Assembly: GCA_963794945.1 (NCBI GenBank)
Contig: CAWCFT010000001.1
Location: forward strand, 419,884 to 483,883
Reading direction: 5' to 3'
DNA length: 64,000 nt
From: Endomicrobiales bacterium
GTDB taxonomy: Bacteria; Elusimicrobiota; Endomicrobiia; Endomicrobiales; CAWCFT01
Both the position numbers and the translations under genes were made by a program. Shown here one piece after another: positions 29,236-46,964 of the stretch. The notes under the pieces are model-generated. The model had not been told where the DNA came from. It saw only the letters and a program-made list of their open reading frames with translations, and did no database searches. How positions within the stretch are numbered: the stretch's first letter is position 1; each line of letters opens with the position of its first letter.

Positions 29236-30396
29236 ATGGATTATTTCTTGACAGATGAACAGCAGATGATGGTCGATCTCTCAAAAAAGATCGCCCAAGA
29301 AAAAATGAAACCCGTCCGCGAACATTACGATGAAACGGGCGATTTTCCTTGGCCCATAGTCCATGAGCTTGCCAAAGCTGACCTTTGCGGAGTTTATATC
29401 CCGCAGGAGTTCGGCGGTTTTGGAAGCGGTGTGTTCGGCCTGGTCCTTGTGGTTGAAGAACTTTGCAAGGTTGACGGCGGCGTGGCCCTAGCCCTTGCGG
29501 CTACAGCGCTTGGAACGTTCCCGATCCTTCTGGGAGCAAGCGACGAACAAAAGAAAAAATATCTCCCGGACATAGCTTCAGGAAAGAAGCTGGCAGCGTT
29601 CGGGCTGACTGAACCTGAGGCAGGTTCTGACGCTACGGCGATGCGTACGACAGCCAAAAAAGACGGGGACCATTATATATTGAACGGCACGAAGTGCTTC
29701 ATAACGAACGCAGGCGAAGCGGAAACCTACACTGTATTCGCTAACACTAACCCGGCAAGAGGCGCAAGAGGCATTTCCTGCTTCATCGTAGAAAAAGGCA
29801 CACCGGGCTTTGATTTCGGTAAAAAAGAGAACAAGATGGGTATCCGTGCCAGCATAACAAAGGAACTCATTTTCAATAACTGCAGAATTCCTAAAGAGAA
29901 CCTTGTAGGCAAAGAAGGCCACGGACTTATTATAGCCCAGGCTACACTCGATGCTTCAAGGCCCGGAGTCGCAGCACAGGCCCTTGGTATAGCGGCCGGC
30001 GCACTTGACGAAGCCATAACTTACTCAAGGACAAGGATACAACAGGGTAAGCCGATATGCTCTTTCCAGGGCATACAGCACATGCTGGCTGATATGGCAA
30101 CTGAAGTCGAAGCAGCAAGATGCCTCGTATATCAGACGGCCAGGATGATGGACGCTAACCCAGGCAAACGTACCACAAAGGAATCAGCAATGGCTAAACT
30201 CTATGCTTCAGAAGTGGCTATGAAGGTCACCACGAACGCCGTGCAGGTGTTCGGCGGTTACGGATACATGAAAGAGTACCCGGTTGAAAAAATGATGCGC
30301 GATGCAAAGATAACGACTTTGTATGAAGGCACTAGCCAGATACAACGCAACGAGATCGCGCTCGCGCTCATTAAAGAATCTGCTTCCAAGAAGTGA
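29236..30396 (+). CDS. Acyl-CoA dehydrogenase (butyryl-CoA dehydrogenase-like)
   Basis: AFGLTEPEAGSDA, NGTKCFITN, KMGIRAS, GGYGY.KEYPVE, YEGTSQIQ. Confidence 0.93.
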   Translation: MDYFLTDEQQMMVDLSKKIAQEKMKPVREHYDETGDFPWPIVHELAKADLCGVYIPQEFGGFGSGVFGLVLVVEELCKVDGGVALALAATALGTFPILLGASDEQKKKYLPDIASGKKLAAFGLTEPEAGSDATAMRTTAKKDGDHYILNGTKCFITNAGEAETYTVFANTNPARGARGISCFIVEKGTPGFDFGKKENKMGIRASITKELIFNNCRIPKENLVGKEGHGLIIAQATLDASRPGVAAQALGIAAGALDEAITYSRTRIQQGKPICSFQGIQHMLADMATEVEAARCLVYQTARMMDANPGKRTTKESAMAKLYASEVAMKVTTNAVQVFGGYGYMKEYPVEKMMRDAKITTLYEGTSQIQRNEIALALIKESASKK

Positions 30397-30403
30397 GGTT
30401 ATA

Positions 30404-31189
30404 ATGCACTTTATTGTTTGTATCAAACAAGTACCCAATACAACGAATGTCCAGATCGACCAGAAGACAGGAACGCTTAAGAGAGAAGGTGTTGAATCGA
30501 TAATCAACCCCTTCGACGAGTACGCTATCGAAGAGGCTATACGGCTTAAGGAACGCTTCGGAGGCAAAACCACCGTAGTTACGATGGGCCCTCCGCAAGC
30601 TGAAGTTGCTTTAAGGGAAGCCATCGGACGCGGGATTGATTCCGCGATCCTTGTATCCGACAGAGCCTTCGCGGGCGCAGATACCTGGGCAACTGCATAC
30701 ACTCTTGCCAGCACAATAAGGGCGCTGGGAGATTATGACCTTATCATCTGCGGCAAACAGGCTACGGACGGTGATACGGCGCAGGTAGGGCCCGGTATCG
30801 CTGAAATGCTTGACATTCCGCACGTAGCTTATGTAAAGAAGATAGAAGACATGAACCAGGAATACGTAAAGGTTGAAAGAATGATGGAAGACGGATATGA
30901 CCTCATCGAGATGCCGCTTCCTTCACTAATATCTGTTGTTAAGGAGATCAATACCCCGCGCCTTCCGTCACTGAGAGGTATGATGAACGCTAAAAAAGCG
31001 GTCGTTCAGAAATGGACCGCAAAAGAGATAAACGCTGAACCGAACAACATCGGCCTCACTGGTTCGCCTACTCAGGTCATGAAGATATTCAGCCCTCCGG
31101 CAAGACAAGGCGGGGTAAAACTCGAAGGTTCGCCGGAAGACATAGCCGCAAAGCTTATTGAAAAATTGAAGACAACACAACTTATATAA
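30404..31189 (+). CDS. etfB: Electron transfer flavoprotein subunit beta
   Basis: VCIKQVP, NPFD..A.EEA, GADTWAT, GKQATDGDTAQVGP, PRLPS. Confidence 0.95.
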   Translation: MHFIVCIKQVPNTTNVQIDQKTGTLKREGVESIINPFDEYAIEEAIRLKERFGGKTTVVTMGPPQAEVALREAIGRGIDSAILVSDRAFAGADTWATAYTLASTIRALGDYDLIICGKQATDGDTAQVGPGIAEMLDIPHVAYVKKIEDMNQEYVKVERMMEDGYDLIEMPLPSLISVVKEINTPRLPSLRGMMNAKKAVVQKWTAKEINAEPNNIGLTGSPTQVMKIFSPPARQGGVKLEGSPEDIAAKLIEKLKTTQLI

Positions 31190-31217
31190 ATTTACTAAAA
31201 GGGAGACCCGAAATAAA

Positions 31218-32469
31218 ATGCCTAATCAAATAAATATCGATTGCGATAAATGTATAGGATGCGCTCTTTGCGTCAGCGCCTGTCCATTTGGCGCGATCGC
31301 ACTTATTGAAAGGCCGGGCCACCCGAAGAAGCTGAAACTTGCGGTCATAGACCCGCATAAATGTACTTTCTGCGGCGCTTGCGTGGAAGCTTGCAAGAAA
31401 TTCTCCGCGGTAGTGATGATAAAAGAAGAACCTATAAAACTTGATATCGATATATCTCATTATCATGGCATATGGGTATACGCCGAACAGCGTCACGGCG
31501 AAATTTCACCGGTAGTATTCGAACTCTTGAACGAAGCGGGAACGCTTGCGAAAAAGCTTAATGTTCCTTTAAGCGCCGTCCTTATCGGAGACAAGATCGA
31601 AGCGAAGGCGCAGGAACTTATCCAGCACGGCGCTGATAAGGTCTATCTTTTTGATGACCCGATTTTTGTTGAGTTCCAGGATGACCCGTACAGCGATATC
31701 CTTTCACACCTTATTGAGAAAGAAAAACCCGAAATAGTCCTTATGGGAGCGACGAACATCGGCAGGTCTTTCGCATCTAGGGTGGCCGCAAGGATAAGAA
31801 CTGGCCTTACCGCAGATTGCACGGCTTTAGATGTTGACCCTTCAACACGTAACCTTATGCAGAACGCGCCCCGCCTTCGGCGGCAATATCATGGCGACCA
31901 TCCTTACTCCCCGCCACAGGCCTCAGATGGCAACTGTAAGGCACAAGGTTTTTAAACCCTCTGCTAAAGATGCGGCAAGAAAGGGAGAAGTGATTAAAGG
32001 AAAAGTTGACAGCGCCAAGATAATAAATCGTTCGAAATTCCTTCAATTCATAAAGGACACGACAGCTAAGGTGAACCTTGCCGACGCAGATATAATCTGC
32101 TCAGGCGGCAGGGGTTTAGGAAAACCAGAAGGCTTTAAGCTTATAGAAGACCTAGCAGAAGCGCTCGGCGGAGCCGTTGGTTCGTCAAGAGCTGCTGTAG
32201 ACTCAGGGTGGATACCGTATTCTCACCAGGTGGGCCAAACAGGACGTACCGTCAGCCCAAAAATATATTTCGCCTGCGGGATATCTGGACAGATACAGCA
32301 CCAGGTAGGCATGAGCTCTTCAGATATAATAGTAGCGATAAACAAAGATCCTCATTGTCCTATGATGCAGATGGCTACTTATGCAATCGAAGGGGATCTC
32401 TACGATATAATACCTTGGATAATTAAAGAAGTTAAAAAGACCCAATTCATAAAGATCGTTTGTTTTTGA
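31218..32469 (+). CDS. etfA: Electron transfer flavoprotein subunit alpha with N-terminal 2x[4Fe-4S] domain; frameshift near 31863
   Basis: CIGCALCVSACP / CTFCGACVEAC, TGLTADCT, (Q)TRPAFGGN, QVGQTG, CGISGQIQH. Confidence 0.93.
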
Positions 32470-32490: not shown

Positions 32491-32519
32491 TTGACATAGC
32501 AAATAATTTGATATAGAAT
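32491..32519 (+). promoter_or_regulatory. Near-consensus sigma70 promoter for the hydrogenase operon
   Basis: TTGACA-17nt-TAGAAT. Confidence 0.75.
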
Positions 32520-32589
32520 ATAATCGCAATAGGAGTTAAAAGATGTAATTTTATTTTTTTAAGACCTATTTGTGAATTCTTTCACGCAT

Positions 32590-33594
32590 ATGACACATTT
32601 TTATATAACACATAACAATTTTATTAACTTTATTCAGGCCTTTACTAAACAATATAGGGTCTACGGGCTCATAGCGGAAGCTGAAGACCTCTTTTGGCAA
32701 AGGCTCAATAACGAAAACACTCCAAAAATCACAGTAAACCGCTACAGAGCGTTACAGCCTATAAAATCGTTTTTCTTTCCGGTTAAAGAAGAAGTAACCG
32801 GAGAGCCATCCACTTTAAAAACTATGTTGGTCGGGGTTAAAGCGTGCGATATAAATCATATAAAGACCACCGATGCCATTTTTATCGGAGGAGCAACGCA
32901 GGACCCATATTACACAAAAAAAAGAGATGACACGATAATTATATCCGCAAACTGTGATAGTTACAAACCATGCTGTTTTTGTACATTAATGAATGAAACA
33001 CCGTATGCGTCAAAAGGATTTGACCTAAATTTAAGCCCAACTAGGCACGGATATCTTGTAGAGACCGGTACACAGAGGGGGCAATCGCTTGTTTCAACGC
33101 ATAAGCATCTTTTTCAGGATCCTCAATCAGTATTGCTGCAGGAAAGGAACATTCTTAGAACAAGGATAACCGAAGCAGTCAAGGACAGCAATAAAGATTT
33201 CACATGGACAAACCCAAAAGAAGTTGTCACAGCTGGATATAACTCCGAAAAATGGGAATCCGATATTGCCAGCACCTGCGTTGAATGCGATGCCTGCCGC
33301 TTTACCTGCGGTACCTGTTACTGTTTTCTTTTAGCGGAAACCAGTAAGCTCTGGGGCAGGATCCGTACTTGGGATTCCTGCCAATCTACAGGGTATTTTA
33401 GAGTAGCCGGCGGAGGTAATCCTAAGAAGACCAGGGGCAAGCGCCTGAGGAATTTCTACGCATGTAAACTCGCTTACCGGCCCGAAAACTTCGGATTTTA
33501 TGCCTGCACGGGCTGTGGCCGGTGCATAGATGTTTGCCAAGGAAAGATCGATATACGCAAGAGCCTGCAAAAACTCACTGATGGTACAAAATAA
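32590..33594 (+). CDS. AsrA / sulfhydrogenase beta-like Fe-S protein (alternative start GTG 32572)
   Basis: GVKACD, C......CFC, CVECDACRFTCGTCYCF, R.WDSC, CTGCGRCIDVC. Confidence 0.85.
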   Translation: MTHFYITHNNFINFIQAFTKQYRVYGLIAEAEDLFWQRLNNENTPKITVNRYRALQPIKSFFFPVKEEVTGEPSTLKTMLVGVKACDINHIKTTDAIFIGGATQDPYYTKKRDDTIIISANCDSYKPCCFCTLMNETPYASKGFDLNLSPTRHGYLVETGTQRGQSLVSTHKHLFQDPQSVLLQERNILRTRITEAVKDSNKDFTWTNPKEVVTAGYNSEKWESDIASTCVECDACRFTCGTCYCFLLAETSKLWGRIRTWDSCQSTGYFRVAGGGNPKKTRGKRLRNFYACKLAYRPENFGFYACTGCGRCIDVCQGKIDIRKSLQKLTDGTK

Positions 33595-34415
33595 TGTTCA
33601 AGAGCCCATTTAGATCTATCCCCGCCAAAGTTGAGAATATTATAGAAGAAACATCTAATATTAAAACTTTTGTTCTTCGTCCGGAAGAGACAATTAATTT
33701 CTCAACAGGGCAATTCATCGAGCTCTCTCTGCCGGGCGTTGGTGAAGCGCCTTTTACACCCTCATCTTCGCCGTACAAAACAGAAACCATTGACGTCACT
33801 ATAATGAAAACTGGTAATTTAACGACCAAACTGCACGCTATGTCCGGCGGAGAAACAGTCGGGATACGCGGCCCTTATGGTAACGGTTATCCTGTTGAAA
33901 AGTTCTACGGAAAAGATGTGCTGATACTTGGAGGCGGCGTTGGTATGGCACCTTTGAGATCATTTCTTTTGACACTAATAGAACAAAAAGATAAATTTAA
34001 CAGGATCATTCTGTGTTACGGCTCTAAAACACCTGACGATATAGTTTATAAATACCTTTTTCCGGAATGGAAGAAGATAAAAATACTAGAGATACTCCAA
34101 AGCGTCGATAGGTGCCCTATAGGAAAATGGGACGCAACTGTTGGGATAGTCACTTGTTTGCTTGACCAGGTTAAGGTTGACCTGGCAAACGCCGTTGCCG
34201 TGGTTTGCGGACCGCCCATCATGATGAAGTTTGGTGCCATAAAGCTTACCGAGATAGGATTTAAGCCATCGGATATGTACCTTTCGATGGAGGCAAACAT
34301 GTCATGCGGGCTTGGGAAATGCGGCCATTGCCAGCTTGGGCCCCATTTCATATGCAAGGACGGGCCAGTATTCACGTACGAGCAGCTTAAACCTATCCCG
34401 GAACCGTTCGCTTAA
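33594..34415 (+). CDS. AsrB / sulfhydrogenase gamma-like FAD/NAD(P)-binding [2Fe-2S] subunit
   Basis: GQF....PGVGEAP, RGPYGNGYP, GGGVGMAPLRS, CGPPIMM, MSCGLGKCGHC......CKDGPVF. Confidence 0.9.
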   Translation: MFKSPFRSIPAKVENIIEETSNIKTFVLRPEETINFSTGQFIELSLPGVGEAPFTPSSSPYKTETIDVTIMKTGNLTTKLHAMSGGETVGIRGPYGNGYPVEKFYGKDVLILGGGVGMAPLRSFLLTLIEQKDKFNRIILCYGSKTPDDIVYKYLFPEWKKIKILEILQSVDRCPIGKWDATVGIVTCLLDQVKVDLANAVAVVCGPPIMMKFGAIKLTEIGFKPSDMYLSMEANMSCGLGKCGHCQLGPHFICKDGPVFTYEQLKPIPEPFA

Positions 34416-34432
34416 CACTGGAATTATTTTAA

Positions 34433-34909
34433 ATGAAAAAACTATTTATTGACCTTGAAATTTGTTACAAATGTAAAGAGTGCACGGCTGGATGCAGTTA
34501 CTATTATCACCCGGAAAACAAGGGGTATGTTCGCTGTCTGGCACTGGCCGGGCAGGAACACGTTTGCCGCAGGTGTGAAGAACCGCCATGCGTCAAGAGT
34601 TGTCCCCAGGAAGCACTCGAGAAAAGGTCCGACGGCATGCTCAACAGGTATTCTCTCAGGTGCACATCCTGCAAGACCTGCACCATGGCGTGCCCGTTCG
34701 GCGTTATTTACCCTCAGATAGTGGAATACAAGACAACTATGTGCGATTATTGCTTCGACAGGGCGGACGACAAGACTCCGCCTGTCTGCACAACGACGTG
34801 CCCGAAGAACGCTCTTCAATGGATAGAGGTTGAAGAAAACCCTTCCAAAGACATTTACGCCGTCAGGAACGGGGCTTTCTTCGTACACACTGTTAAATGG
34901 AATAAGTGA
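34433..34909 (+). CDS. Multi-[4Fe-4S] protein (HycB/HyfA/CooF-like)
   Basis: CYKCKEC...C, CRRCEEPPCVKSCP, CTSCKTCTMACPFG, CDYC........C...CP. Confidence 0.85.
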   Translation: MKKLFIDLEICYKCKECTAGCSYYYHPENKGYVRCLALAGQEHVCRRCEEPPCVKSCPQEALEKRSDGMLNRYSLRCTSCKTCTMACPFGVIYPQIVEYKTTMCDYCFDRADDKTPPVCTTTCPKNALQWIEVEENPSKDIYAVRNGAFFVHTVKWNK

Positions 34910-35820
34910 TGATAAACTATATATTTTATTACATTGTGTTTCCGGGGTTCCTGTTTCTGGCTTTGGCCGGTATGGTGCTCAGCTGGGTAGACAGAAAGGT
35001 AACGGCCAGGTTCCAGTGGCGCATGGGCCCGCCTTTCTTTCAGCCATTTTACGACCTGCGAAAGCTTTGCATAAAGGAATCCTTCAGCCCGGCAGGCGGT
35101 AACAGGCTTCTGTTCACGCTTGCGCCGCTAGTTTCGATTATTTCTATCGTAATAGTTTCAGATATAGTGCTGCTTACGTTCCTTGACACAAAGATCAGTT
35201 TCATCGGCGACCTTATCGTTGTATTGTATTTTTTTACAGCTATTCCTTTCGCCTCAATACTCGGTGCCTCTTCTTCTAACAATGCGTTCGCGTCACTCGG
35301 GGCAAGCCGCGAGATGAAATCAATATTATCGTACGAACTGCCGCTGCTCCTCTCAATACTTGTTCCAGTAGTCAAGTCAGGCAGTATATCCATAGGAAAG
35401 ATTGTCGAGATGCAGAATGCCTCAGGCTCTTTTGTGGGCAGCTTGTCCGGATTTATCGCTCTTGTTGTAGCAATGATGTGCCTGCAGGCAAAGATGGGGC
35501 TTGCGCCTTTTGATATAAGCGAAGCAGAGACAGAACTTGCTGCCGGAACCCTTATAGAATACTCAGGGCCGCTGCTGGCTATGTGGAAACTTGCGAAGAT
35601 GATGCTCTTTATTGTAGCTCCTGTGTTTATAGCAGTGATCTTTTGGGGTGGGGGACTTAAACCATTCCTGCTTCTAAAGTACGGCGCGCTCGCATTGTTT
35701 TTCATTGTTCTTAAGAACATAAACCCCAGGGTCAGGATAGACCAGTCGATACGCTTTTTCTGGGGCAGGATGTCAGCCGCGGCTGTGGTAGCTTTATTGC
35801 TAGCGGTCATTGGGCTATAA
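34906..35820 (+). CDS. Hydrogenase membrane anchor (NuoH/HycD/MbhM-like)
   Basis: DRKVTAR.Q.R.GPP..QP..D..KL, GASRE, PFDISEAETEL..G...EYSG. Confidence 0.92.
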   Translation: MMINYIFYYIVFPGFLFLALAGMVLSWVDRKVTARFQWRMGPPFFQPFYDLRKLCIKESFSPAGGNRLLFTLAPLVSIISIVIVSDIVLLTFLDTKISFIGDLIVVLYFFTAIPFASILGASSSNNAFASLGASREMKSILSYELPLLLSILVPVVKSGSISIGKIVEMQNASGSFVGSLSGFIALVVAMMCLQAKMGLAPFDISEAETELAAGTLIEYSGPLLAMWKLAKMMLFIVAPVFIAVIFWGGGLKPFLLLKYGALALFFIVLKNINPRVRIDQSIRFFWGRMSAAAVVALLLAVIGL

Positions 35821-35832
35821 CTTAAACTATAT

Positions 35833-36255
35833 ATGTCATTTATAACTAATGCCTTAACAAAATCCCTTTTTGTCTTTCACGCGGCTTGCAGCCCGTGTAA
35901 CAACTGCGACATTGAGATACTCGACCTGCTTACGCCGCGCTTTGACATTGAACGCCTCGGAATGCAGCTCGTTGGTTCGCCCCGGCATGCAGATGTCCTG
36001 CTTGTTACCGGCGCCGTAAACAAAAAGGTAGTGTCTAGGATAAAAAGGCTTTATGAACAGACTCCAAAACCCTGCGTTGTCGTAGCTATGGGTGGCTGTG
36101 CTTGTTCGGAGATAATTTTCCGTGACTCGTACAACACCTGCGGACCCCTTGACAGGATCATACCGGTCGATATTTACATACCCGGCTGCCCACCGCGGCC
36201 GGAAGCTATGATCGCTGGTCTTTCTAAACTTATAACGAAGCTTAAACAAAAGTGA
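35833..36255 (+). CDS. [NiFe]-hydrogenase small subunit (NuoB/MbhJ-like)
   Basis: CNNCDIE, SPRHADVLLVTG, GGCA, IPGCPPRPE. Confidence 0.93.
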   Translation: MSFITNALTKSLFVFHAACSPCNNCDIEILDLLTPRFDIERLGMQLVGSPRHADVLLVTGAVNKKVVSRIKRLYEQTPKPCVVVAMGGCACSEIIFRDSYNTCGPLDRIIPVDIYIPGCPPRPEAMIAGLSKLITKLKQK

Positions 36256-36692
36256 ACACTATGAAAACATCAGAACAGATAAGAACCAAATTCGAGAAAA
36301 TGATCTTAACATGGGATGATAAGAACCCCAAAAGGGTTTATTTCCGGATATCGCCCGAGAGTATCAGAGAGGTCACGCAGTTTATAGTGGAAGAGCTCAG
36401 TTTGCGTTTCATAATCGCAAGCGGAACGGATACGCGAAGAGATATCGAGATACTCTACCATTTCGCAGACGATAACACCGGAGTTATATATTCGGCAAGG
36501 GTAATTCTTGCAAACAAAAAAAACCCCAGGATAGCGTCCATAGCCGACCTTTTCATCGGGTCAATGTGGATAGAACGTGAGATACATGAGCTCCTGGGAG
36601 TCACATTCATCGGCAACGAAGACATGAAACATCTGCTGCTTAACGATGACTGGCCCAAGAACAATTTCCCATTGAGGCACGACAATGACTGA
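36252..36692 (+). CDS. NuoC/MbhK-like subunit
   Basis: LYHF, SI.......W.EREI.EL.G..F.G, DW....FPLR. Confidence 0.88.
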   Translation: MNTMKTSEQIRTKFEKMILTWDDKNPKRVYFRISPESIREVTQFIVEELSLRFIIASGTDTRRDIEILYHFADDNTGVIYSARVILANKKNPRIASIADLFIGSMWIEREIHELLGVTFIGNEDMKHLLLNDDWPKNNFPLRHDND

Positions 36693-37887
36693 TAACAATA
36701 AATGTTTTATACCCATAGGGCCTTACCATCCGCTTCAGGAAGAACCTGAGTTTTTCAGGCTGCACGTTGAAGGGGAAAAAGTAGTCGGCATAGATATAGA
36801 GCTTGGTTACAACCACCGCGGGATTGAGAAACTTTCAGAAGCCAAACACTTTGACCAGGGCATATTCCTCGTTGAACGCATTTGCGGTATCTGTTCGACG
36901 TCTCATCCTTTCGCTTTCGTTAACGCAGTCGAAGACCTTGCCGGCATATCAATACCGGAGCGCGCCAAATATATCCGTACGATTGTGGGAGAGCTCGAGA
37001 GGATCCACTCACATCTCCTTTGGCTCGGCCTCGCTGGACACTTCATGGGCTACAACACTATCTGGATGTGGTCCTGGAAATACCGCGAACCCATACTGGA
37101 CATTTTCGAGAAGATATCTGGCAACCGCCAGCACTACGCAATGATGGAAATAGGCGGCGTGCGGCGCGATATAGAATCCGGCGACATACCTTGGATCGAG
37201 AAATCACTTGGCGTTCTCAATAAAGGGCTGGACATGTTCAGGGGCGCCATCATGGATGACCCCGTTATACAGGCGAGGACTAAAGGCGTAGGCGTTCTTA
37301 CACCGGAAGACATAAGGAACTACTGCGCTGTCGGCCCGCTCGCGAGGGCGTCCGGCATAAACATAGACACCCGCAGGGACGCGCCGTACGCGGCATACGG
37401 CATGGTTGATTGGAAAGTCCAGACCTACGAAGGCGGAGACATATTCGCGAAAGCCGTTGTCAGAATACTCGAGATGCAGGAATCTATCAAGATCATATAC
37501 CAGTGCCTTACTAGGCTTAAGACCGAAAAAGGCCCGTTCGCCGTATCGGTAAAAGAAGTCCCGGCTGGCGAGGGAATAGGCAGGCATGAAGCGCCGCGCG
37601 GGGAGTGTTTCCATTATGTAAAAAGCGACAAGACCAACCGCCCGGTACGCCATAAAGTGCGCGCCCCGTCATTCGTGAATGTAGCGACGAACCAGAAGGC
37701 TGTTGTCGGCTACCACATATCGGACGCTTTGCTTGTACTGGCGGCGGTAGACCCATGTTACTGCTGCACGGAACGGGTAGCCGTTGTAGACGATCATACT
37801 TCAAAAACTATTTACTCGGGAAACGACCTTGTAAAGCTTTCACAAAATAGGACAAAGATGCTGAGGAAACAAATCCTAGGAAAATAA
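36685..37887 (+). CDS. Group 4 [NiFe]-hydrogenase large subunit (probably 4g/Mbh-related)
   Basis: GPYHP..EEP, L1 ERICGICSTSH, EAPRGE, L2 DPCYCCTER; all four metal-ligating Cys present. Confidence 0.93.
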   Translation: MTDNNKCFIPIGPYHPLQEEPEFFRLHVEGEKVVGIDIELGYNHRGIEKLSEAKHFDQGIFLVERICGICSTSHPFAFVNAVEDLAGISIPERAKYIRTIVGELERIHSHLLWLGLAGHFMGYNTIWMWSWKYREPILDIFEKISGNRQHYAMMEIGGVRRDIESGDIPWIEKSLGVLNKGLDMFRGAIMDDPVIQARTKGVGVLTPEDIRNYCAVGPLARASGINIDTRRDAPYAAYGMVDWKVQTYEGGDIFAKAVVRILEMQESIKIIYQCLTRLKTEKGPFAVSVKEVPAGEGIGRHEAPRGECFHYVKSDKTNRPVRHKVRAPSFVNVATNQKAVVGYHISDALLVLAAVDPCYCCTERVAVVDDHTSKTIYSGNDLVKLSQNRTKMLRKQILGK

Positions 37888-39711
37888 ATGCTCGAATACG
37901 CTGTCTACATCATTTTTCTAATAGGGCTTTTGTGCATGATTGTGCCAAAGAGGTTCCGCTCGCTGATCAGGGCCATTGCACTTATCGGCGCGTCGCTCAC
38001 TTTTTTATACGGTGTTTTAAATTTCATCTCGCCGACATATGAAACTGTTTCGAGCTTCTTTTCTTATAACTCGTTCAACGGGTTCATAACTCTTGCCTGC
38101 ACATTTTTCTGCTTTTGCATAGTATGTTTTTCTATCAATTACGCCGAGTTCATTCCAGAAATAAACCTATATTACGGGCTCATATTTTGGTGCGTGAGCT
38201 TTTCTTTGTTCGCGGTTTACAGCGCGAACCTTGTGGCGCTCCTCGTTTTCTGGGGACTCTCCGGCATGGCGTTGTACCTTCTTGCGAACCTTATGCCGCA
38301 GGCATCCAATGCGGCCAAGAAATCATTTATATTTGTTGGCGGGTCAGACGCTTTCCTTGTGCTTGGGATCGCAATACTTTGGATGCTTACAGGATCGTTC
38401 GATATATTCAACATTCGCATCAGGCTCGCGGACGGTTCGGCCCTTGCAAAGGTTTCGTTCATATGTTTCTCCATTGCAGCCCTCACTAAAGCCGGAGCGA
38501 TGCCGTTCCACAGCTGGATACCTGATTTTGCCGAAAACGTACCTATGACGCTTACGGCGTTCCTTCCGGCCGCGCTGGATAAACTGCTTGGTATCTTCCT
38601 GCTTGTGCTTGTAACGAACAGGCTTTTTATACTCGATGCCCCTATGTCATTATTGCTTCTCATAGTAGCTTCTATAACGATCATAACGGCGGTTTGCATG
38701 GCTATGGTTCAGAGCAATATCAAACGAATGCTCGCTTATTGCGCCGTTTCCCAGGTTGGCTATATTATTCTCGGTATAGCTTCAGGCACGCCGCTCGGTA
38801 TAGCAGGCGGTATGTTCCACATGCTAAACCATGCGGTTTACAAAAGCGGGCTTTTTCTTACCGGAGCTTCTATAGAGCACCGCAACGGAACTACGTCGCT
38901 GTCAAAGCTTGGAGGCCTCTCAAAGTTCATGCCGATTACGTTCGGAGTAGCTCTCGTTACCGGATTTGCCATGTCAGGCATACCTCCTTTCAGCGCTTTC
39001 GCCTCCAAGTGGATGATATACCAATCGCTAATTCAGCAATATTTAAACCCGGCGCTTCCGATAACCGAGAAGATGCTTTTCCTTCTGTTCCTGATCACCG
39101 CGATGTTCGGGTCGGCCATGACGTTGGCGGTCTTCGCGAAATTTATACACTCTGTTTTCCTTGGCCAGCCTTCGGAATCTCCTCAGACACCGGCGGCTGA
39201 AATTAAGGAAGTAAAACTGCCTATGCTTATACCAATGATCCTGCTTGCATTCTTAAGCATTTTGTTCGGCGTTCTGCCTAATTCTATCCCTCTCAAACTC
39301 TTTATTTATCCCAGCCTAGAATCGCTCAATATACCTGTGCCTAAATTCATTGGCCTTTGGCAGCCGGGCACTGCTACGGCTCTTATAGTAGGCGCCCTGT
39401 TTATCGGCATTTTAATATTTCTCGCCGGCAACATCACGTTCAAGACAGACAAGCCGTTCATGGGAGGCGAAGACCTTCCGCCTGATGCAAAGGCTTCCGG
39501 CCCGGAATTTTACAAAACCATCACGGATATGTGGTTCTTTAATAAGGTTTACGGTTTCGCCGAAAAAAAGTATTTTGACATTTATGACCAGATAACAAAG
39601 CTTGTTCTTGGGCTCGGGCGGTTTCTTTCGTTCGTCCACACCGGAAGCCTGCACACGTACTTGCTGTTGTTCCTGCTGGGTTTCGCAACTATAATTTTGG
39701 CCTTGAGGTAA
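37888..39711 (+). CDS. NuoL/MrpA-like antiporter-type subunit with lateral helix
   Basis: TKAGAMPFHSWIPD, DKLLG, SQVGY, HA.YK..LFL, G.PP...F.SKW, C-terminal HTGSLHTY. Confidence 0.88.
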   Translation: MLEYAVYIIFLIGLLCMIVPKRFRSLIRAIALIGASLTFLYGVLNFISPTYETVSSFFSYNSFNGFITLACTFFCFCIVCFSINYAEFIPEINLYYGLIFWCVSFSLFAVYSANLVALLVFWGLSGMALYLLANLMPQASNAAKKSFIFVGGSDAFLVLGIAILWMLTGSFDIFNIRIRLADGSALAKVSFICFSIAALTKAGAMPFHSWIPDFAENVPMTLTAFLPAALDKLLGIFLLVLVTNRLFILDAPMSLLLLIVASITIITAVCMAMVQSNIKRMLAYCAVSQVGYIILGIASGTPLGIAGGMFHMLNHAVYKSGLFLTGASIEHRNGTTSLSKLGGLSKFMPITFGVALVTGFAMSGIPPFSAFASKWMIYQSLIQQYLNPALPITEKMLFLLFLITAMFGSAMTLAVFAKFIHSVFLGQPSESPQTPAAEIKEVKLPMLIPMILLAFLSILFGVLPNSIPLKLFIYPSLESLNIPVPKFIGLWQPGTATALIVGALFIGILIFLAGNITFKTDKPFMGGEDLPPDAKASGPEFYKTITDMWFFNKVYGFAEKKYFDIYDQITKLVLGLGRFLSFVHTGSLHTYLLLFLLGFATIILALR

Positions 39712-39718
39712 GGGATTA

Positions 39719-40225
39719 ATGCTTTCGATACAGATATTGATACTATTTATGATAGCTGCCGCGCTTATGGCCGTAGAAACGAAGGATTTTTTCGCTTCTA
39801 TTATCGCCCTTGGTGTCATGGGACTTGAGTTGTGCCTTGTTTTTCTTCTTTTGAAAGCACCTGACCTTGCCATAATCACTCTTGTGCTTGAGATTCTGGC
39901 TTTGGCGGTGTTCGCCAAAGCTATAGCCTCTCACAACCCCAAGCCTATGGGTGACCTGGATATATTTTCGCTACTAACATTCGCCGCTTTTGCCGTGCTT
40001 TTTACGTTGATCTGCGTTAAGGTCTTTAACGAGCTTCCTTCCTTCGGCTTGCCTTTGATGAAACTCGGCGATGATTACGCCGCCGGGTCAATGCAGAACA
40101 CAGGAGCCGCAAATGAAGTATCCGCAATAGCCTTCAATTTCCGAGGTTTCGACTCACTCATAGCCCTTATGGTGCTTTTACTTACGGCTATGGGAGTATT
40201 TCATATAATGAGGAAAAAAGAATGA
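39719..40225 (+). CDS. MbhD/E-like subunit (DUF4040 + MrpA C-terminal part)
   Basis: LKAPDLAI, TGAAN.VSAI..NFRGFD. Confidence 0.8.
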   Translation: MLSIQILILFMIAAALMAVETKDFFASIIALGVMGLELCLVFLLLKAPDLAIITLVLEILALAVFAKAIASHNPKPMGDLDIFSLLTFAAFAVLFTLICVKVFNELPSFGLPLMKLGDDYAAGSMQNTGAANEVSAIAFNFRGFDSLIALMVLLLTAMGVFHIMRKKE

Positions 40226-40659
40226 GCATCAAAACCGGCCTCTTTAAGGCGATTGCAAAACTATATTTCGCCTCCAATCTCATGTTCGGTTTCTACCTTA
40301 TGTCTCACGGGCATATCAGCCACGGAGCTGGGTTTGCGGGCGGAGTAATGATCGCACTAGGTTTTTTGTTCGCTTTTGCCATGCATGGCAAAGATGATGC
40401 GTCCATAATAGTCAATCTAGCCAACGCAAAGCTCACTATGCTGTCCGGCGGAACGCTATTCCTTTTGGTATCTGTTCTAGGCTATTTGTATGGCAAAGGA
40501 TTTATGTGCAATTTTCTGGACCTTGGCAAACCATTCTCTATATTCAGCGCCGGCATAACAGCTATCTATAATATCATCCTGTGCTTTGGGACAGTAGGGT
40601 GCATGCTTTACATCTATTTAAGTTTTTTTAGTTCAGACACTGACAAACAAGGAAAATAG
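40222..40659 (+). CDS. MrpB/MnhB-like subunit
   Basis: HGH.S.G.GFAGG, SAG.....N. Confidence 0.82.
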   Translation: MSIKTGLFKAIAKLYFASNLMFGFYLMSHGHISHGAGFAGGVMIALGFLFAFAMHGKDDASIIVNLANAKLTMLSGGTLFLLVSVLGYLYGKGFMCNFLDLGKPFSIFSAGITAIYNIILCFGTVGCMLYIYLSFFSSDTDKQGK

Positions 40660-40661
40660 TC

Positions 40662-40997
40662 ATGGAATTCACATTGAGTGTCGTGCTGTTCTGCGTTGGA
40701 TTATACGCTGTAATAGCAAAAAGGAACCTTATAAAAACTATCATTGGCGTCGCGGTGATGGGGTATTCAATAAACCTTATGCTTATTTTGGCGGGTTACA
40801 GAGTGCACTCAGGCATTCCTATACTGTCTAACGAGTCATTACAGATGCCGGGTGTCGACCCTCTTGCCCAGGCAATGGTCCTTGTGTCAGTTGTGTTAGG
40901 ACTTTCGATAACACTGCTTCTGACGGCTTTATCTATCAAACTATATGAGCGCTACGGAACATTCGACTTGACGGAAATTAAGAAACTCAAAGGATAA
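40662..40997 (+). CDS. MrpC/MnhC-like subunit
   Basis: GLY.....NLIK.IIG, DPL.QAMVL...V.G, YGT.D. Confidence 0.9.
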   Translation: MEFTLSVVLFCVGLYAVIAKRNLIKTIIGVAVMGYSINLMLILAGYRVHSGIPILSNESLQMPGVDPLAQAMVLVSVVLGLSITLLLTALSIKLYERYGTFDLTEIKKLKG

Positions 40998-40998
40998 C

Positions 40999-42477
40999 AT
41001 GCTACCGCTATTTATACTGATCCCTCTCATATCTGCCTTACTGCTTGCCTCTCTCGGCAAGACCAGCAAACGGCTGGCTGACGCTGTTGCGCTCGTTTCA
41101 ACCCTTGCGCTTTGCCTTCTTTCGGTACTGGTTTTGGTGGCGGTTATTTCTAAAGGGGCCGTTTCTTATAACATAGGAGGCTGGCAGCTGCCGCTTGGCA
41201 TAACCCTCAACTGCGACGGCCTGAGCGTCTTTTTCCTTGTGACCGTAAACTGCCTGGCCTTCTTAATTTCGATGTACTCTATTGACTACATTGAGAATAC
41301 GAGCGGTAAGCTAAAATACTATTTCTTCTTCATGATGCTTATTGCCGGATTGAACGGCGTCATGCTTACCGGCGATTTCTTCTCCCTGTTCGTACTGATA
41401 GAGTTCTCCTCTATCTCTGCCTACATTCTCACTTCATTTGAAAAGAAGGACGAAAGCTATGAAGCCTCGTTTAAGTACGCGGTGCTGGGTTCGGTCTCGT
41501 CTTTGCTCATAATATTCGCTATAGCCCTGATATATTTCAAGACATCTTCATTAAGCTTCCATGACGTTTCCAGGTCTCTTGCCGGCAATGGACTCTCAGC
41601 TTTCTCTATGCTGATAACGGTGCTACTGCTCGTAGGATTCGGGCTTAAAATGGCCCTCGTCCCGTTCCACACTTGGGCGCCTGACGCATACTCAAGCGCT
41701 CCATCATCTGTTTCCGCCATGTTCTCCGGAGCAGTGGGAAAAGTGCTCGGCATATATCTTTTCTTAAGAATATTTTTCAACGTCATCGGCAGCACGCCTG
41801 CCATGCTTAACCTCACTGCCGTTTTTGGCGTCACATCTATTATAGTGGGTGTAACGCTTGCCTTGTACCAGTGGGACATCAAGAGGCTACTTTCGTACCA
41901 TTCTATCAGCCAGATAGGCTACATAATGCTTGGCATAGGCCTCGGAACGCCGCTCGGCATATTCGGCGGGCTCTTCCATCTCATAAACCATACGGCTTTC
42001 AAATCTCTTTTGTTCCTTAATGCTGGTTCCATAGAGCGACAGGCCGGATCCACCAATCTCAAGGAGCTCGGCGGACTATCAAAGAAAATGCCGGTGACCG
42101 GTTCAACATCAATGGTCGCGTCACTTTCGATCTCCGGCGTGCCGCCTTTCAACGGCTTCTGGAGCAAGCTTTTGATAATTATCGCGTGCATCAGCGCGCA
42201 CAGCTACTGGTTCGCGCTCTGCGCAGTGATAGGCAGCATCTTGACCCTGTCTTCCTTTATGAAGGTCCAGCGCTACGCATTTTATGGGTATCTTAAAGAC
42301 ATTATGTCTGATGTTAAGGAGTCGCCGGCCTTCATGACGATCCCTATGATAATTCTTTCTATATTCTGTATTTTTATGGGCATATTACTTTTGCCTGGCA
42401 TTGATTCGAACTTTCTTGGCGTGGCTCTTAACGTGATCGAACGCGGCACCGGGTATTTCGCGATAGGGCCTCATTGA
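40999..42477 (+). CDS. MrpD/MbhH (NuoN/M-like) antiporter-type subunit
   Basis: D.F.LFV..E, EA.FKY, LKMALVPFHTW.PDAY, KRLLSYHSISQIGY, PPFNGFWSK. Confidence 0.92.
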   Translation: MLPLFILIPLISALLLASLGKTSKRLADAVALVSTLALCLLSVLVLVAVISKGAVSYNIGGWQLPLGITLNCDGLSVFFLVTVNCLAFLISMYSIDYIENTSGKLKYYFFFMMLIAGLNGVMLTGDFFSLFVLIEFSSISAYILTSFEKKDESYEASFKYAVLGSVSSLLIIFAIALIYFKTSSLSFHDVSRSLAGNGLSAFSMLITVLLLVGFGLKMALVPFHTWAPDAYSSAPSSVSAMFSGAVGKVLGIYLFLRIFFNVIGSTPAMLNLTAVFGVTSIIVGVTLALYQWDIKRLLSYHSISQIGYIMLGIGLGTPLGIFGGLFHLINHTAFKSLLFLNAGSIERQAGSTNLKELGGLSKKMPVTGSTSMVASLSISGVPPFNGFWSKLLIIIACISAHSYWFALCAVIGSILTLSSFMKVQRYAFYGYLKDIMSDVKESPAFMTIPMIILSIFCIFMGILLLPGIDSNFLGVALNVIERGTGYFAIGPH

Positions 42478-42487
42478 AGGATCAAAT

Positions 42488-42979
42488 ATGAAGAACAAAC
42501 TAATATTCTTTCTGTCGCTTCTCGCTTTATGGCTGGTTTTGTCCTGGTCCGTAAGCATGGACGAGCTTTTCGCCGGTTTTATTTTCTCTGCGCTAACGGT
42601 CTTTATCTCAGATAAGATTTTTGGCGCCGGGCCGGACAATGCTAACCCGTTTAGGTATCTTTGGTTTGTCGTGTATTTCTTAGCGCTGTTGTGGGATATT
42701 ATGCGTTCATGCGCAGATGCGCTATACAGGCTCATCCATCCGGCGCTTATATCGAAACCCAGAATACTTGATATCAAAACTACCTTGCGCAACGATACAG
42801 CGATAGGCTTGCTTTCAGGAACGCTGTCGCTTATGCCGGGCACTTTGACGGTAGATTTTAACAGCCAGAATAATGTGTTTCATGTTTATTGCCTTGTTGG
42901 AATGACACCAACTTACTCAAGTGTGATCGAGCTTTTGATTTTTAAATACGAGAACATACTTAAGAAGGTGTACGCATGA
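42488..42979 (+). CDS. MrpE/MnhE-like subunit
   Basis: LW..LS, HP...I.P.I, LSL.PGTLTVD. Confidence 0.88.
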   Translation: MKNKLIFFLSLLALWLVLSWSVSMDELFAGFIFSALTVFISDKIFGAGPDNANPFRYLWFVVYFLALLWDIMRSCADALYRLIHPALISKPRILDIKTTLRNDTAIGLLSGTLSLMPGTLTVDFNSQNNVFHVYCLVGMTPTYSSVIELLIFKYENILKKVYA

Positions 42980-43311
42980 AAATATTTCGCTACATTATAG
43001 GCTTAATTGCAGTGCTGTCACTGCTCGGCTGTGACATATATTTCGGCAACACAATGCTCAGCCGGTTATTCTATCTGTTGATAGCTTCATGCTTGTTCGC
43101 CCTTTTGCGGCTTGCGATCGGCGCAACTAACCACGATAGGCTTCTCGCATTCAAGGCGGTCAGCATCACGCTTGTAGGTTTCTGCGTTATACTCGCGATT
43201 GCTCAAAAAAAGGACCTTTATATCGATATAGCCATTGCCTGGACGCTGCAGTCGTATATAGTGTCGTTTTTCTTAAGCAGATACCTGGGCGGAGGGAATA
43301 CTGATGATTAA
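42976..43311 (+). CDS. MrpF/MnhF-like subunit
   Basis: RL..G.T..DR.LA, YIDIAI. Confidence 0.8.
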   Translation: MKIFRYIIGLIAVLSLLGCDIYFGNTMLSRLFYLLIASCLFALLRLAIGATNHDRLLAFKAVSITLVGFCVILAIAQKKDLYIDIAIAWTLQSYIVSFFLSRYLGGGNTDD

Positions 43312-43630
43312 CTATATCGGCTTCACCTTCACCACGCTTGGCGCGCTATTCATATTCCTCGCTGTACTATCAGTTCTACGTTTCCATGATTTTTATTCAA
43401 GGCTTAACGCGTTCGTAAAGTTCGCCGCGTTCGGAACTTTCTGCCTTATGCTGGGAGTTCTTATATTTTGCGGTTTTTCAGCGGTGGGGATAAAAGCCAT
43501 TCTCTGCATCGCAGTAGTAGTCTTGACCCTGCCTGCCGAAGCTCAACTGCTTATGCGTTCCGCAAGAAAAACGGGTATAAAAATGCCCGGCGAACTTGAC
43601 AGCCAGGACCAAGGGAAAGGTTTTAAATGA
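43304..43630 (+). CDS. MrpG/MnhG-like subunit
   Basis: RF.DFYSRL.A..K....G, LT.P.......R.A. Confidence 0.85.
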   Translation: MINYIGFTFTTLGALFIFLAVLSVLRFHDFYSRLNAFVKFAAFGTFCLMLGVLIFCGFSAVGIKAILCIAVVVLTLPAEAQLLMRSARKTGIKMPGELDSQDQGKGFK

Positions 43631-44250
43631 AATACCCTAAACTAAGAGAGATCAAAGAAGCGCTTAAATCGTTCTTTAGCGCGCCTTACACCAATAAATT
43701 CCCTTATGCCCCTGCAAAAACATTCCCGGGCTTCCGCGGAAAACCTGAGCCCAACGATGCAGAGTGTATAGCCTGCAGTGCTTGTGCCGAGGTATGTCCG
43801 GCAAGGGCCATAGAGATAAGACAGAACAAGAATATTAAACCAGCGACAAGACAGGTTATTTGGCATTACGATATATGCATATTCTGCGGACAGTGCGAGC
43901 GCCTGTGCACAACACAGAAAGGCGTAAAGCTTTCAGAAGAGTACGACCTGGCCTCTTTCGACAGGGGGACATTGTTCTCAAAAATTGAAAAGGAACTGGT
44001 TGTTTGCGAAGACTGCGGCGAAGTAATTGGTCCAAAAGCCCAGCTCCTGTGGCTAATAAAGAAACTGGGGCCCCTGGCTTCAGGCAACTTCAACCTTATA
44101 AACACGTCCCAGAAAGAGCTGGGTATAGCTCCAGCCGATGTAACCGATGTAGTCCCTCCTCCAACTACCCGCGGCGATCTCTACAGGATGCTCTGCCCCA
44201 AATGCCGGCATGTCGTCCTTGTATTTAACCAGACCGGAAAACAGTCATAA
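43627..44250 (+). CDS. NuoI/MbhN/HycF-like 2x[4Fe-4S] subunit with extra C-terminal Cys pairs
   Basis: FRGKP, CIACSACAEVCP, CIFCGQCERLC, CEDCG...CPKCR. Confidence 0.9.
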   Translation: MKYPKLREIKEALKSFFSAPYTNKFPYAPAKTFPGFRGKPEPNDAECIACSACAEVCPARAIEIRQNKNIKPATRQVIWHYDICIFCGQCERLCTTQKGVKLSEEYDLASFDRGTLFSKIEKELVVCEDCGEVIGPKAQLLWLIKKLGPLASGNFNLINTSQKELGIAPADVTDVVPPPTTRGDLYRMLCPKCRHVVLVFNQTGKQS

Positions 44251-44278: not shown

Positions 44279-44626
44279 ATGCATGAACTCGGAATAGCTC
44301 AGGATTTCTGGGCAGTGATAAAAGAGCAGGCGAAACTCAACGGTTTGAAGACCGTTTCTAAGATAGTTATCATTCTCGGTGAGGCGAGCGGCATAGACAA
44401 GGATTTTCTTGCCCACTCCTTCAAGGACCATATTCTGCCTGGAACGTTCGCGGCTGGCGCCGAACTCGAAATTGTACCTAAAGGGCTATGCGCCAAGTGT
44501 AACAGCTGCGGCAGTGAAATAACCACAGATATGATAACCGCGCTTAACTGTCCCCGCTGTAAAAGCTCCAATATCGAGATCGTGTCCGGCAAAGAAACCT
44601 ATGTCCAGAGCATCGAAGGGGAATAA
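44279..44626 (+). CDS. hypA: Hydrogenase maturation nickel metallochaperone
   Basis: MHE start, CNSC...CPRC, SGKE....SIE. Confidence 0.95.
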   Translation: MHELGIAQDFWAVIKEQAKLNGLKTVSKIVIILGEASGIDKDFLAHSFKDHILPGTFAAGAELEIVPKGLCAKCNSCGSEITTDMITALNCPRCKSSNIEIVSGKETYVQSIEGE

Positions 44627-46959
44627 AGCTTTCAGTATTCTTGTATCCGGAAAGGTACAGGGTGTTGGATTCCGTCCTTTTATCTTCAGAACCGCAAAAT
44701 CGCTGGGCTTAAATGGTTTCGTGGCTAATTCCACTTACGGCGCAGTTATCAAAATAGAAGGCAAACAAGAATCTATTGACGTCTTTATAAGAAATCTTAA
44801 AAGTACTATCCCGCCAAATTCAAATATTTCAAGCATTAAAATACAACCAATTCCTTTGAAGAACTATAAAATATTCTCAATAACCAAGAGCCTACCTGGT
44901 AAGTCAATTTCCGCCGATATTCCGCCAGACCTTTGCGTTTGTACCGACTGCGCGTGCGACATTTATTCCAAAAATAACCGCCGTTACCTTTACCCTTTCA
45001 CGAACTGTACTAATTGCGGCCCCAGGTTTTCCATAATCAAAGGCCTGCCCTACGACAGGAAAAAGACTACCATGAAAGGGTTCAGTATGTGCAAAGACTG
45101 CGAGAGAGAATATAATGACCCTCTCAACAGGCGTTTTCAAGCCCAGCCTAATGCCTGCCCTGTGTGCGGCCCAAAGGTAACGCTTCTATCAAACAGTTTT
45201 AAGCCTCTGGCTTCCGGTGCCACAGCTTTAGCGGAAGCTATCAGGCTGCTTAAAGAAGGTAAAATTGGAGCGCTCAAAAGCATCGGGGGATACCATCTGG
45301 CCTGCGACGCGACAAACCGCAGGACAGTTAAGCGATTGAGAGAACTTAAACGCCGCCCGTTCAAACCCTTCGCGCTTATGATGCCAAACATAGGCACTGC
45401 AAAGAAATATTGTCATATAAACAAAAGTGAATCAAAGCTTTTAACTTCAACGTCATCTCCGATCGTACTGCTTACGGCTCGCAAAGTTAAGGGCCTGCCA
45501 TATGACATTCTTGCCCCCGGCAACAACCGGTTAGGTGTCATGCTCGCGTATACTCCGCTGCATAAGCTTTTGTTCGATTCGTGCGATACCGGAAAATTCA
45601 ATTTCAAAGCCCTCGTTATGACTTCAGGCAACAGAAGCGATGAACCGATTTGCATAGACGAAAAACAAGTCAATGACAGATTGTCGGGGATAGCCGATTT
45701 TTTTCTTGTTAATGACAGGCCTATCCACAACCGCTGCGACGATTCTATTATTATTAACCTTAATAGCGAAAACAACGTATTCGTACGCAGGAGCAGGGGC
45801 TTTGTACCGGAGCCGGCATGTATCATAGCACGAGAATCGTCGACTCCAGTTGTTTTGGCGGCCGGAGCTGAGCTTAAGAACACGTTCTGTTTTGTTAGGG
45901 GTGCCTCAGCCTACCCTTCACAGTTCATCGGAGATCTTGACAACCTAGAATCATCGCGTTTTTATGAAGAGGCTTTCCTTAGGATGAAGGATTTTCTTAA
46001 GGTAACACCTTCTATCGTAGCGCACGACCTCCACCCGGATTATTATTCAACTATCTTCGCGAATAAACTGCTCAAAAACAACCCGAGATTGAAAACCACG
46101 CCCGTTCAGCACCACCATGCCCACATCGCTTCAGTCATAGCGGAAAAAGGTATTAAGGGTCCAGTCATTGGCATTGCGTTCGATGGTAATGGCATGGGAT
46201 CCGATGGCAACGTATGGGGAGGAGAATGCCTCCTTGCTGAAGGTGCAGGCTTTACACGGCTTGCCCACCTTGACTACTTCAGGCTGCCGGGAGGGGATAT
46301 AGCCACAAAGGAGATCTGGCGGCTTGCCGTTTCTCTAGCACACAAGTATTCTATCAAGGGCCTGCCGGCAACCGTCAAACGCAGAAACATCTCAAATTTT
46401 ATTGATACTATGATAGCGAGAGAGGTCAATTCCCCGTTATGCTCAAGCATGGGCAGGCTTTTTGATGCTGTTGCTTCATTAATAGGTATAAGGCAGGAAG
46501 TAACTTTTGAGGCCCAGGCAGCTATTGAGATGGAGTCGCTTGCCATGGACAACCCGGTCAAAAAAGGCTATAATTTTGATATAGTTTTCAGTAATGATAG
46601 TGCCAGCTGCCCAACTCCGGCTTTAATAAGCGTCAAAAAGGTTATTGAAGGTATCCTAAGAGACCTTTCGTCAGGCGTTGATAAAAGTATTATCAGCGCC
46701 AAATTTCATTTTACTGTTTCCGAGATGATACACAATATGGCCCGGAAGTTCTGCGCATACCATAATATAAATAACGTGGTACTTCAGCGGCGTATTTCAG
46801 AATAAAGTATTGCTAGATATGGCAGTAAAACGCCTTGAACGCTCTCGATTCAAAGTTCACTTCAATACGGTCGTGCCTCCAAATGACGGAGGCATATCGC
46901 TGGGCCAAGCCTACATAGCGGTAAAAACAGTCGAAGAAGCAGTTAAGAGAGCAAGGTAG
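44601..46959 (+). CDS. hypF: Hydrogenase maturation carbamoyltransferase; frameshift near 46787
   Basis: G.VQGVGFRP, C..C/NCTNCGPR/C..C/CP.CGP fingers, HDLHPDY, QHHHAH, SSMGRLFD, then (G)VFQN and PNDGGISLGQ in the shifted frame. Confidence 0.95.
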
Positions 46960-46964
46960 ACTAT

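Follow-up and report, generated by a model that had tools for sequence, protein, structure and literature searches.

A Hun-type membrane [NiFe] hydrogenase operon from an Endomicrobiales bacterium with a predicted NADH input and a candidate Rex switch

The window analyzed here, a stretch of 64,000 nt from the genome of an Endomicrobiales bacterium (C1:419884-483883; feature coordinates below are window positions), carries a 16-gene operon at 32590-44250 that is almost certainly an intact copy of the Hun membrane [NiFe] hydrogenase, as indicated by its gene set, the motif of its large subunit, and the phyla already named as carriers. From its sequence, the operon is predicted to encode an NADH-oxidizing, H2-forming valve switched by Rex, a reading to which we give slightly less than an even chance. 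NADH would be oxidized at the AsrB-like flavoprotein HunB and H2 would be formed at the Ni site of HunG, with electrons passing from NADH through the FAD and [2Fe-2S] cluster of HunB to HunA, HunC, HunP, HunE, and finally the NiFe center of HunG. Such an arrangement would amount to an arm of the formate hydrogenlyase (FHL) type, HycB/HycF-like, in which AsrAB replaces formate dehydrogenase, and the operon would be switched on when build-up of NADH releases Rex. The gene set, cofactor ligands, synteny, and Rex-type box are seen directly in the sequence, whereas the substrate, assembly, regulation, direction, and coupling of the complex are inferred. In the widest and more tentative form of the proposal, Hun might be a complex I-family machine working in reverse, an NADH:H+ oxidoreductase fed by an AsrAB-type module where complex I has NuoEFG, with ions entering through a modified Mrp arm (the TM5 glutamate of HunH being lost) to drive the uphill step from NADH to H2; it would then serve fermenters in many phyla as a Rex-switched redox valve without flavin bifurcation or an H2-consuming partner. 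If Hun is indeed NADH-linked, the published ferredoxin model would be corrected for an enzyme that occurs in several phyla of anaerobes, a further way to fit an NADH input onto a complex I-like arm would be added, and nature would have supplied a means of testing which features determine the direction of ion coupling. The question is testable, since the number of antiporter subunits varies naturally from one half-size copy to two or three, and one carrier, Labilibacter sediminis CG51 (locus L100), is in culture.

Identity of the operon

Loci of this kind have been described before. The original prediction, which read it as a hybrid energy-converting hydrogenase with an NAD(P)H module, had allowed that similar loci might already be on record, and this is the case: it was named Hun by Glass et al. 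(bioRxiv 10.1101/536078) and was also noted in PMC6349859 and 10.1101/765248. The NAD(P)H module is supported, whereas the locus is not new and its energetics had been glossed over. Glass et al. describe a complex of 16 subunits (hunA-P) in which AsrA/B-like HunAB come without AsrC, the large subunit bears the motifs CGIC and CYCC, and Mrp homologs are present, and they name Atribacteria, Omnitrophica, Elusimicrobia, Bacteroidetes, and Kosmotoga as carriers. All these features, together with the NuoH-like anchor, recur in the cluster at 32590-44250 (AsrAB-like, Fe-S, NuoH/B/C/D-like, Mrp set, NuoI-like), which, unlike some Hun loci in that paper, lacks a molybdopterin gene in the interval from hunB to hunC; no molybdopterin or carbon monoxide dehydrogenase (CODH)-type gene was recognized there in the inspected loci of our comparison either. 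The same paper classes Hun as HydDB group 4g and calls HunG distant from other 4g sequences. Its model combines ferredoxin input with a Na+ ATP synthase, and in its main text "Rex" occurs nowhere and "NADH" once, in a complex I legend. Group 4g plus Mrp is also taken as ferredoxin-linked in PMC8542988 and PMC9324843. The loci termed "Mbh-Mrp-oxidoreductase" in Saganbacteria (PMC6349859) and Elusimicrobia (10.1101/765248) resemble Hun in uniting a group 4 hydrogenase, Mrp subunits, and an oxidoreductase module. For the Saganbacteria locus, the supplement of PMC6349859 gives asrA, asrB, and cooF, an AsrB FAD/NAD domain, and a nuoE/nuoF-like role; that locus differs from the present one in including a molybdopterin enzyme, and its function was left there as Mbh-like or unknown. 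Our literature search, which reached few subscription journals, found neither a biochemical characterization of Hun, which has apparently never been purified, nor an NADH-linked group 4 hydrogenase.

The 16 open reading frames lie on the + strand with intergenic gaps of -8 to +17 bases, and Pfam and NCBIfam scans back the family label of every gene in the order originally given: AsrA/sulfhydrogenase (SH)-beta-like, AsrB/SH-gamma-like, HycB/CooF-like, NuoH, NuoB, NuoC, NiFe large subunit, MrpA-like, MbhD/E, MrpB-G, and NuoI-like. The inventory of 16 genes was thus correct, but it overlooked a Rex-type palindrome, the maturation genes hypAFC and hypD, the absence of a maturation protease, and a frameshift in hypF. 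The claim that the large subunit carries all Ni ligands also holds. HunG (36685-37887), which has a C-terminal extension and finds its best PDB matches in MbhL (6cfw_L) and HycE (7z0s_E), contains the motifs RICGIC (C67, C70) and DPCYCC (C358, C361); the four cysteines are kept in 114/114 homologs and CYCC in 112/114. A NuoD-like protein with these four ligands and NuoB/C/H/I-like partners places the enzyme in group 4 of the [NiFe] hydrogenases. The NuoB-like small subunit HunE (35833-36255; PF01058) has C22, C25, C89, and C119 conserved in all 108 homologs, HunF (36252-36692; PF00329) is NuoC-like, and the NuoH-like membrane anchor HunD (34906-35820; PF00146) keeps its charged, notably acidic, residues. 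The operon does not belong to group 3b, as alpha and delta subunits are absent from it and the genome has just two further NiFe large subunits, an Mvh-type protein beside hdrA and one of a second group 4 enzyme; nor is it an AsrABC system, as the siroheme subunit AsrC has no match above cut-off in the whole genome, only ferredoxin-domain matches. The source genome is 86% complete, a figure that applies to each absence from it reported in this text. Within that limit, the earlier statement that no AsrC, group 3b alpha/delta, formate dehydrogenase, or CODH gene is present extends to the genome, in which neither molybdopterin enzymes nor CODH-family proteins gave a match, and the AsrC or group 3b partner that would have spoken against the NAD(P)H module did not turn up.

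Conservation and synteny

The close linkage of the AsrAB-like genes with this hydrogenase, on which the original prediction depended, was borne out by a synteny survey. In a phylum sample of 201 genomes, 41 have a large subunit of the HunG clade with an identity of at least 61%, and large subunits of a second group 4 clade stand apart with ~45-48%. We compared 40 non-self loci from this sample with the 80 top-ranking loci out of at least 596 from GTDB (Bacteroidota, Omnitrophota, Elusimicrobiota, and others). Of these 120 loci, 20 were too short (<4.2 kb upstream) and 100 were scorable, which left 97 after three duplicates were dropped. The order asrA-asrB-FeS-nuoH-nuoB-nuoC upstream of the large subunit was found in 97/97, and asrA, asrB, the Fe-S gene, and rex in none of 20 sister group 4 loci, for each of which 11-16 kb was fetched. 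Because the loci were picked by likeness to the query and share common ancestry, these counts are not independent events. A reverse search placed HunA-clade and HunG-clade matches in the identical 41 of 201 phylum genomes, and all 43 sampled large subunits of the CYCC type form one clade (FastTree support 0.91).

Apparent breaks of synteny in two loci were explained by an inserted, unrelated gene of 539 residues, CsgG/FlgO- and VWA-like, between hunD and hunE (L041:3429-5048 and L061:4115-5734). Three other loci show unusual surroundings: rex and hun are preceded by an apparent molybdopterin enzyme gene that is followed by a second AsrA-like gene (L077:1-2470), a complex I-like cluster with a 616-aa NuoI-like subunit lies directly upstream of hun (L114:1-4502), and a HunA-like open reading frame of 513 aa begins with an apparent response-regulator receiver domain (L107:4274-5815).

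The soluble arm and its probable electron donor

HunA (32590-33594; 334 aa) is an AsrA/sulfhydrogenase beta-like Fe-S subunit, and HunB (33594-34415; 273 aa) an AsrB/sulfhydrogenase gamma-like subunit with FAD, NAD(P), and [2Fe-2S] sites. AsrA/AsrB and SH beta/gamma models match the two proteins with every score below the family cut-off. Among structures, the beta and gamma subunits of Pyrococcus furiosus soluble hydrogenase I (SHI; PDB 9nez) are the closest relatives, 9nez_B being the sole PDB match of HunA (E 8.7e-38) and SHI gamma the best match of HunB (E 1.4e-51). Hun differs from SHI and AsrAB in lacking alpha/delta subunits or AsrC, and in having Asp for Thr at the nucleotide site. Fourteen cysteines of HunA are kept in 92/92 homologs, and the flavin, nucleotide, and [2Fe-2S] motifs of HunB (GGGxG, CGPP, and CxxxxCxxC...C) across 100. 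Asp172 of HunB is present in 99/100 of these homologs; NAD-linked PyrK and 4ylf_A likewise have Asp at the aligned position, and SHI gamma, from an NADPH enzyme, has Thr. In cytochrome b5 reductase, an Asp-to-Thr exchange (D239) switches the enzyme from NADH to NADPH (PMC5817062).

The two remaining soluble subunits suggest an arm of the FHL type that receives its electrons through AsrAB. HunC (34433-34909; 158 aa) is a HycB/CooF-like protein with four [4Fe-4S] cluster sites, and the best PDB match of the NuoI/HycF-like HunP (43627-44250) is HycF of FHL (7z0s_F; E 1.3e-19), with four additional cysteines conserved. In an alignment of 74 HunC sequences, all four cluster sites are present in 35 and almost complete in two; 14 sequences lack one site, and 23, every one from Bacteroidota, lack two; two clusters are thus invariant and two dispensable, and a ferredoxin-like spare branch is not required. 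The argument given for the ferredoxin model is weakened as well, because AsrABC, never purified itself, is described as NADH-linked (PMC10949509). NADH is therefore probably the partner of HunB, to judge from these residues and relatives, and the evidence likely favors it over the ferredoxin-only input of 10.1101/536078. The NAD(P)H module first proposed can thereby be narrowed to an NADH module by Asp172, synteny, and the Rex-type boxes described below.

Regulation

A candidate Rex-type operator, a palindrome with two mismatches to the consensus TTGTGAA-N4-TTCACAA (PMC13077300, PMC2883068), lies at 32570-32587 on the + strand and ends two bases 5' of the hunA ATG. It is the only such site in the window, where 0.37 are expected and 32/100 shuffles reach one, and it is therefore not significant alone; genome-wide, 20 sites occur. 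Across the compared loci the signal is stronger, as a Rex-type box lies within 300 bases of hunA in 45/90 loci, 16 of them perfect, against a mean of 0.37 and a maximum of 3 in dinucleotide shuffles, and a rex gene within 500 bases in 33/81. The source genome encodes Rex on another contig, so that both a candidate upstream operator and the protein are at hand, as in a Rex regulon. Rex lets go of DNA at high NADH (PMC13077300). Farther upstream, a sigma-70-like promoter site (TTGACA-17-TAGAAT; 32491-32519, + strand) agrees with the consensus at 11/12 positions; this is a pattern match only, with 38 promoter-like sites in the region and 26.5 expected. The rex gene of the source genome (C11:36615-37241) stands two genes ahead of an F-type ATP synthase operon.

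Membrane arm and energetics

Equivalents of MrpA-G are all present in the membrane arm. HunH (37888-39711; 607 aa) is an MrpA/MbsH'-like antiporter subunit, followed by HunI (39719-40225), which is MbhD/E-like and corresponds to the C-terminal part of MrpA (PF13244, PF20501), MrpB-like HunJ (40222-40659; PF04039), MrpC-like HunK (40662-40997; PF00420), MrpD-like HunL (40999-42477), MrpE-like HunM (42488-42979; PF01899), MrpF-like HunN (42976-43311; PF04066), and MrpG-like HunO (43304-43630; PF03334). The charged axis of HunL is intact, with E135, K217, K248, and K390 each found in 80/80 loci. That of HunH is altered at the fifth transmembrane helix (TM5), where Gly123 replaces a glutamate; 84/96 HunH sequences have Gly at this position, whereas Glu is retained by the corresponding subunit encoded at the second group 4 locus, and all 10 HunH that keep it come with an extra antiporter gene. 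The complex has two antiporter-like subunits, as MBS does (6u8y; PMC8165549), while HunG finds its best matches in MBH (6cfw) and Escherichia coli FHL (7z0s), and HunP in the latter. Unlike ferredoxin-linked MBH and MBS and formate-linked FHL, none of which has an AsrAB module, it lacks the TM5 glutamate in HunH.

The arm also varies among carriers. Among the 80 loci that include hunP, the usual set of two antiporter-like subunits and the small Mrp genes occurs in 64. A third antiporter-like subunit is present in 11, the small genes are few or missing beside two such subunits in another two, and two more encode only one half-size subunit without any Mrp gene; the remaining locus is incomplete. 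The half-size subunits (~295 aa; L031:7186-8067 and L033:8199-9098) keep the TM12 lysine and lack TM5, TM7, and TM8; the complete AsrAB arm is kept, and L033 has a perfect Rex-type box. Both loci are among the nearest relatives of the present operon, and since they come from one family, the Mrp loss was probably a single event. Taken with the Gly of HunH, they make the H2/NAD chemistry look more conserved than the ion machinery, which looks kept but altered in most carriers.

The potentials of the NADH and H2 couples are -320 and -414 mV, and we assumed an NADH/NAD+ ratio of 0.1, 17 kJ per ion, and ferredoxin at -500 mV. Under these assumptions, H2 formation from NADH costs +23.8 kJ at 1 bar H2 and +1.0 kJ at 10 Pa and yields -4.7 kJ at 1 Pa. 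As the reaction is uphill above ~10 Pa, H2 formation from NADH leaves no energy for expelling ions: export of a single ion makes it unfavorable at all pressures calculated, the lowest being 0.1 Pa, and import of one ion lets it proceed below ~0.1 bar. An NADH-linked Hun accordingly needs reversed or loose coupling, ion-driven H2 uptake, or admixed ferredoxin electrons. We tentatively suggest that the membrane arm may let ions flow in and so pay for the step from NADH to H2; the other option within this reading, about half as likely, is a loosely coupled arm with a valve working only at low H2.

Alternative explanations

Several observations weigh against an NADH-driven valve. Its coupling would be opposite to that of characterized group 4 enzymes, which conserve energy during H2 evolution (PMC5037454; PMC8165549). 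The Rex box is no proof of NADH use, because Rex also governs ferredoxin-dependent Ech and CODH/Ech (PMC6391272, PMC13077300), and half of the loci, including that of the cultured strain, have no close Rex-type box. HMMER placed the nitrate reductase strand in a different register from HunB Asp172. The equivalence of this residue to Asp239 of cytochrome b5 reductase is presumed, and alignments with PDB sequences did not show it. Other possible NADH routes are encoded in the genome, namely [FeFe] hydrogenase, Bcd-Etf, and Nfn. In the phylum sample, Hun co-occurs with Rnf (34/41 against 8/160 Hun-less genomes) and with acetyl-CoA synthase (26/41 against 3/160), counts in which kin are not independent, and this agrees with H2 uptake too. 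As regards maturation, a HycI-like protease gene follows hunP in 45/65 loci and is absent from this operon; one stands beside the second group 4 locus. Moreover, hypF (44601-46960) meets a stop at 46805, with its last conserved stretch in another frame. The split is likely an assembly indel, as several other genes are split too; otherwise maturation would be impaired.

The co-occurrence with acetyl-CoA synthase and Rnf suits an uptake enzyme with ordinary group 4 coupling, in which ion influx would drive electrons from H2 to NAD+ at very low H2, much as reverse Ech supplies reduced ferredoxin; the coupling sense would be unchanged, and this hydrogenase type has been placed in predicted acetogens (10.1101/765248). 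However, Rex frees its targets at high NADH, which is the wrong sense for an NADH maker; above ~10 Pa H2 the uptake reaction is already downhill, so that a gradient would be wasted; and RnfC, acetyl-CoA synthase, and CODH were not found in the source genome, whose context looks like that of a fermenter and favors venting. Uptake is unlikely, although with an appreciable chance. The published model (10.1101/536078), in which HunABC is fed by reduced ferredoxin only and H2 evolution pumps H+ or Na+ out as in Mbh, is easy energetically (-17 to -39 kJ per H2), keeps ordinary coupling, and is compatible with Rex control. It leaves the intact FAD/NAD site of HunB in ~100 homologs unexplained, sits poorly with the description of AsrABC as NADH-linked (PMC10949509), and meets a genome that already has a second group 4 enzyme without AsrAB; its Na+ ATP synthase also finds no counterpart in the c subunit of the source genome, which lacks the Na+ motif and looks H+-type by its sequence. 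We allow it only a small chance.

Joint oxidation of NADH and reduced ferredoxin to H2 would keep ordinary coupling and make ion export affordable at low H2 (-19 kJ per H2 at 10 Pa), and the four cluster sites of this HunC make a second entry possible; but the two spare clusters are lost in 23/74 sequences. Such confurcation also finds no known bifurcating site in HunB, which we take to be an FNR/PyrK-type flavoprotein of the non-bifurcating kind, and it is quite improbable. It is very improbable that HunAB is merely co-transcribed and serves a sulfur, heterodisulfide, or formate enzyme beside an ordinary ferredoxin-linked membrane hydrogenase. The HdrA-Mvh pair of the genome and the molybdopterin protein in some published Hun loci (10.1101/536078, PMC6349859) would fit this idea, whereas the fixed order in 97/97 loci, the one-to-one match in 41/41 genomes, the retention of the arm where Mrp is lost (L031, L033), and the lack of matches to AsrC and a Mo enzyme in the source genome do not. 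Formate or CO input was rejected, as no molybdopterin or CODH-family enzyme matched anywhere in that 86% complete genome, and so was a role of Hun as a stand-in for Rnf, because the two co-occur in the phylum sample, though the source genome itself shows no Rnf. The original prediction offered two energy modes, energy conservation from H2 oxidation and the venting of NAD(P)H as H2. The NADH link behind them is supported, but they are one reaction run both ways, and each needs a coupling opposite to that of characterized group 4 enzymes. Under standard conditions, H2 oxidation to NADH releases 18 kJ; if it exports one ion, however, it can proceed only above ~0.1 bar H2 at an NADH/NAD+ ratio of 0.1, and it requires reversed coupling and the wrong sense of Rex control, which makes the energy-conserving mode barely credible.

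Genome context and neighboring genes

The maturation genes hypA, hypF (frameshifted near its 3' end, ~46800), and hypC, the last recognized by sequence likeness only, follow the operon at 44279-47186, and hypD (PF01924) lies at 48319-49353, all on the + strand. Directly upstream, at 29236-32469, are genes for an acyl-CoA dehydrogenase (Bcd), EtfB, and a ferredoxin-fused EtfA. The etfA gene is split by a frameshift (31218-31955 and 31831-32469), again suggesting an assembly indel, and the same neighbors are intact in L033. The second group 4 operon (C1:269595-279783) has three antiporter-like genes and a HycI-like protease gene without AsrAB. The genome also holds an NfnAB-like pair and an [FeFe] hydrogenase; Mvh, Hdr, and Nfn were labeled by eye from sequence. 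In several genomes of the phylum sample (e.g., G020:C16, G067, and G091), a second RnfC-like gene with an open frame of ~650-710 aa was seen, in some of them on the same contig as acetyl-CoA synthase.

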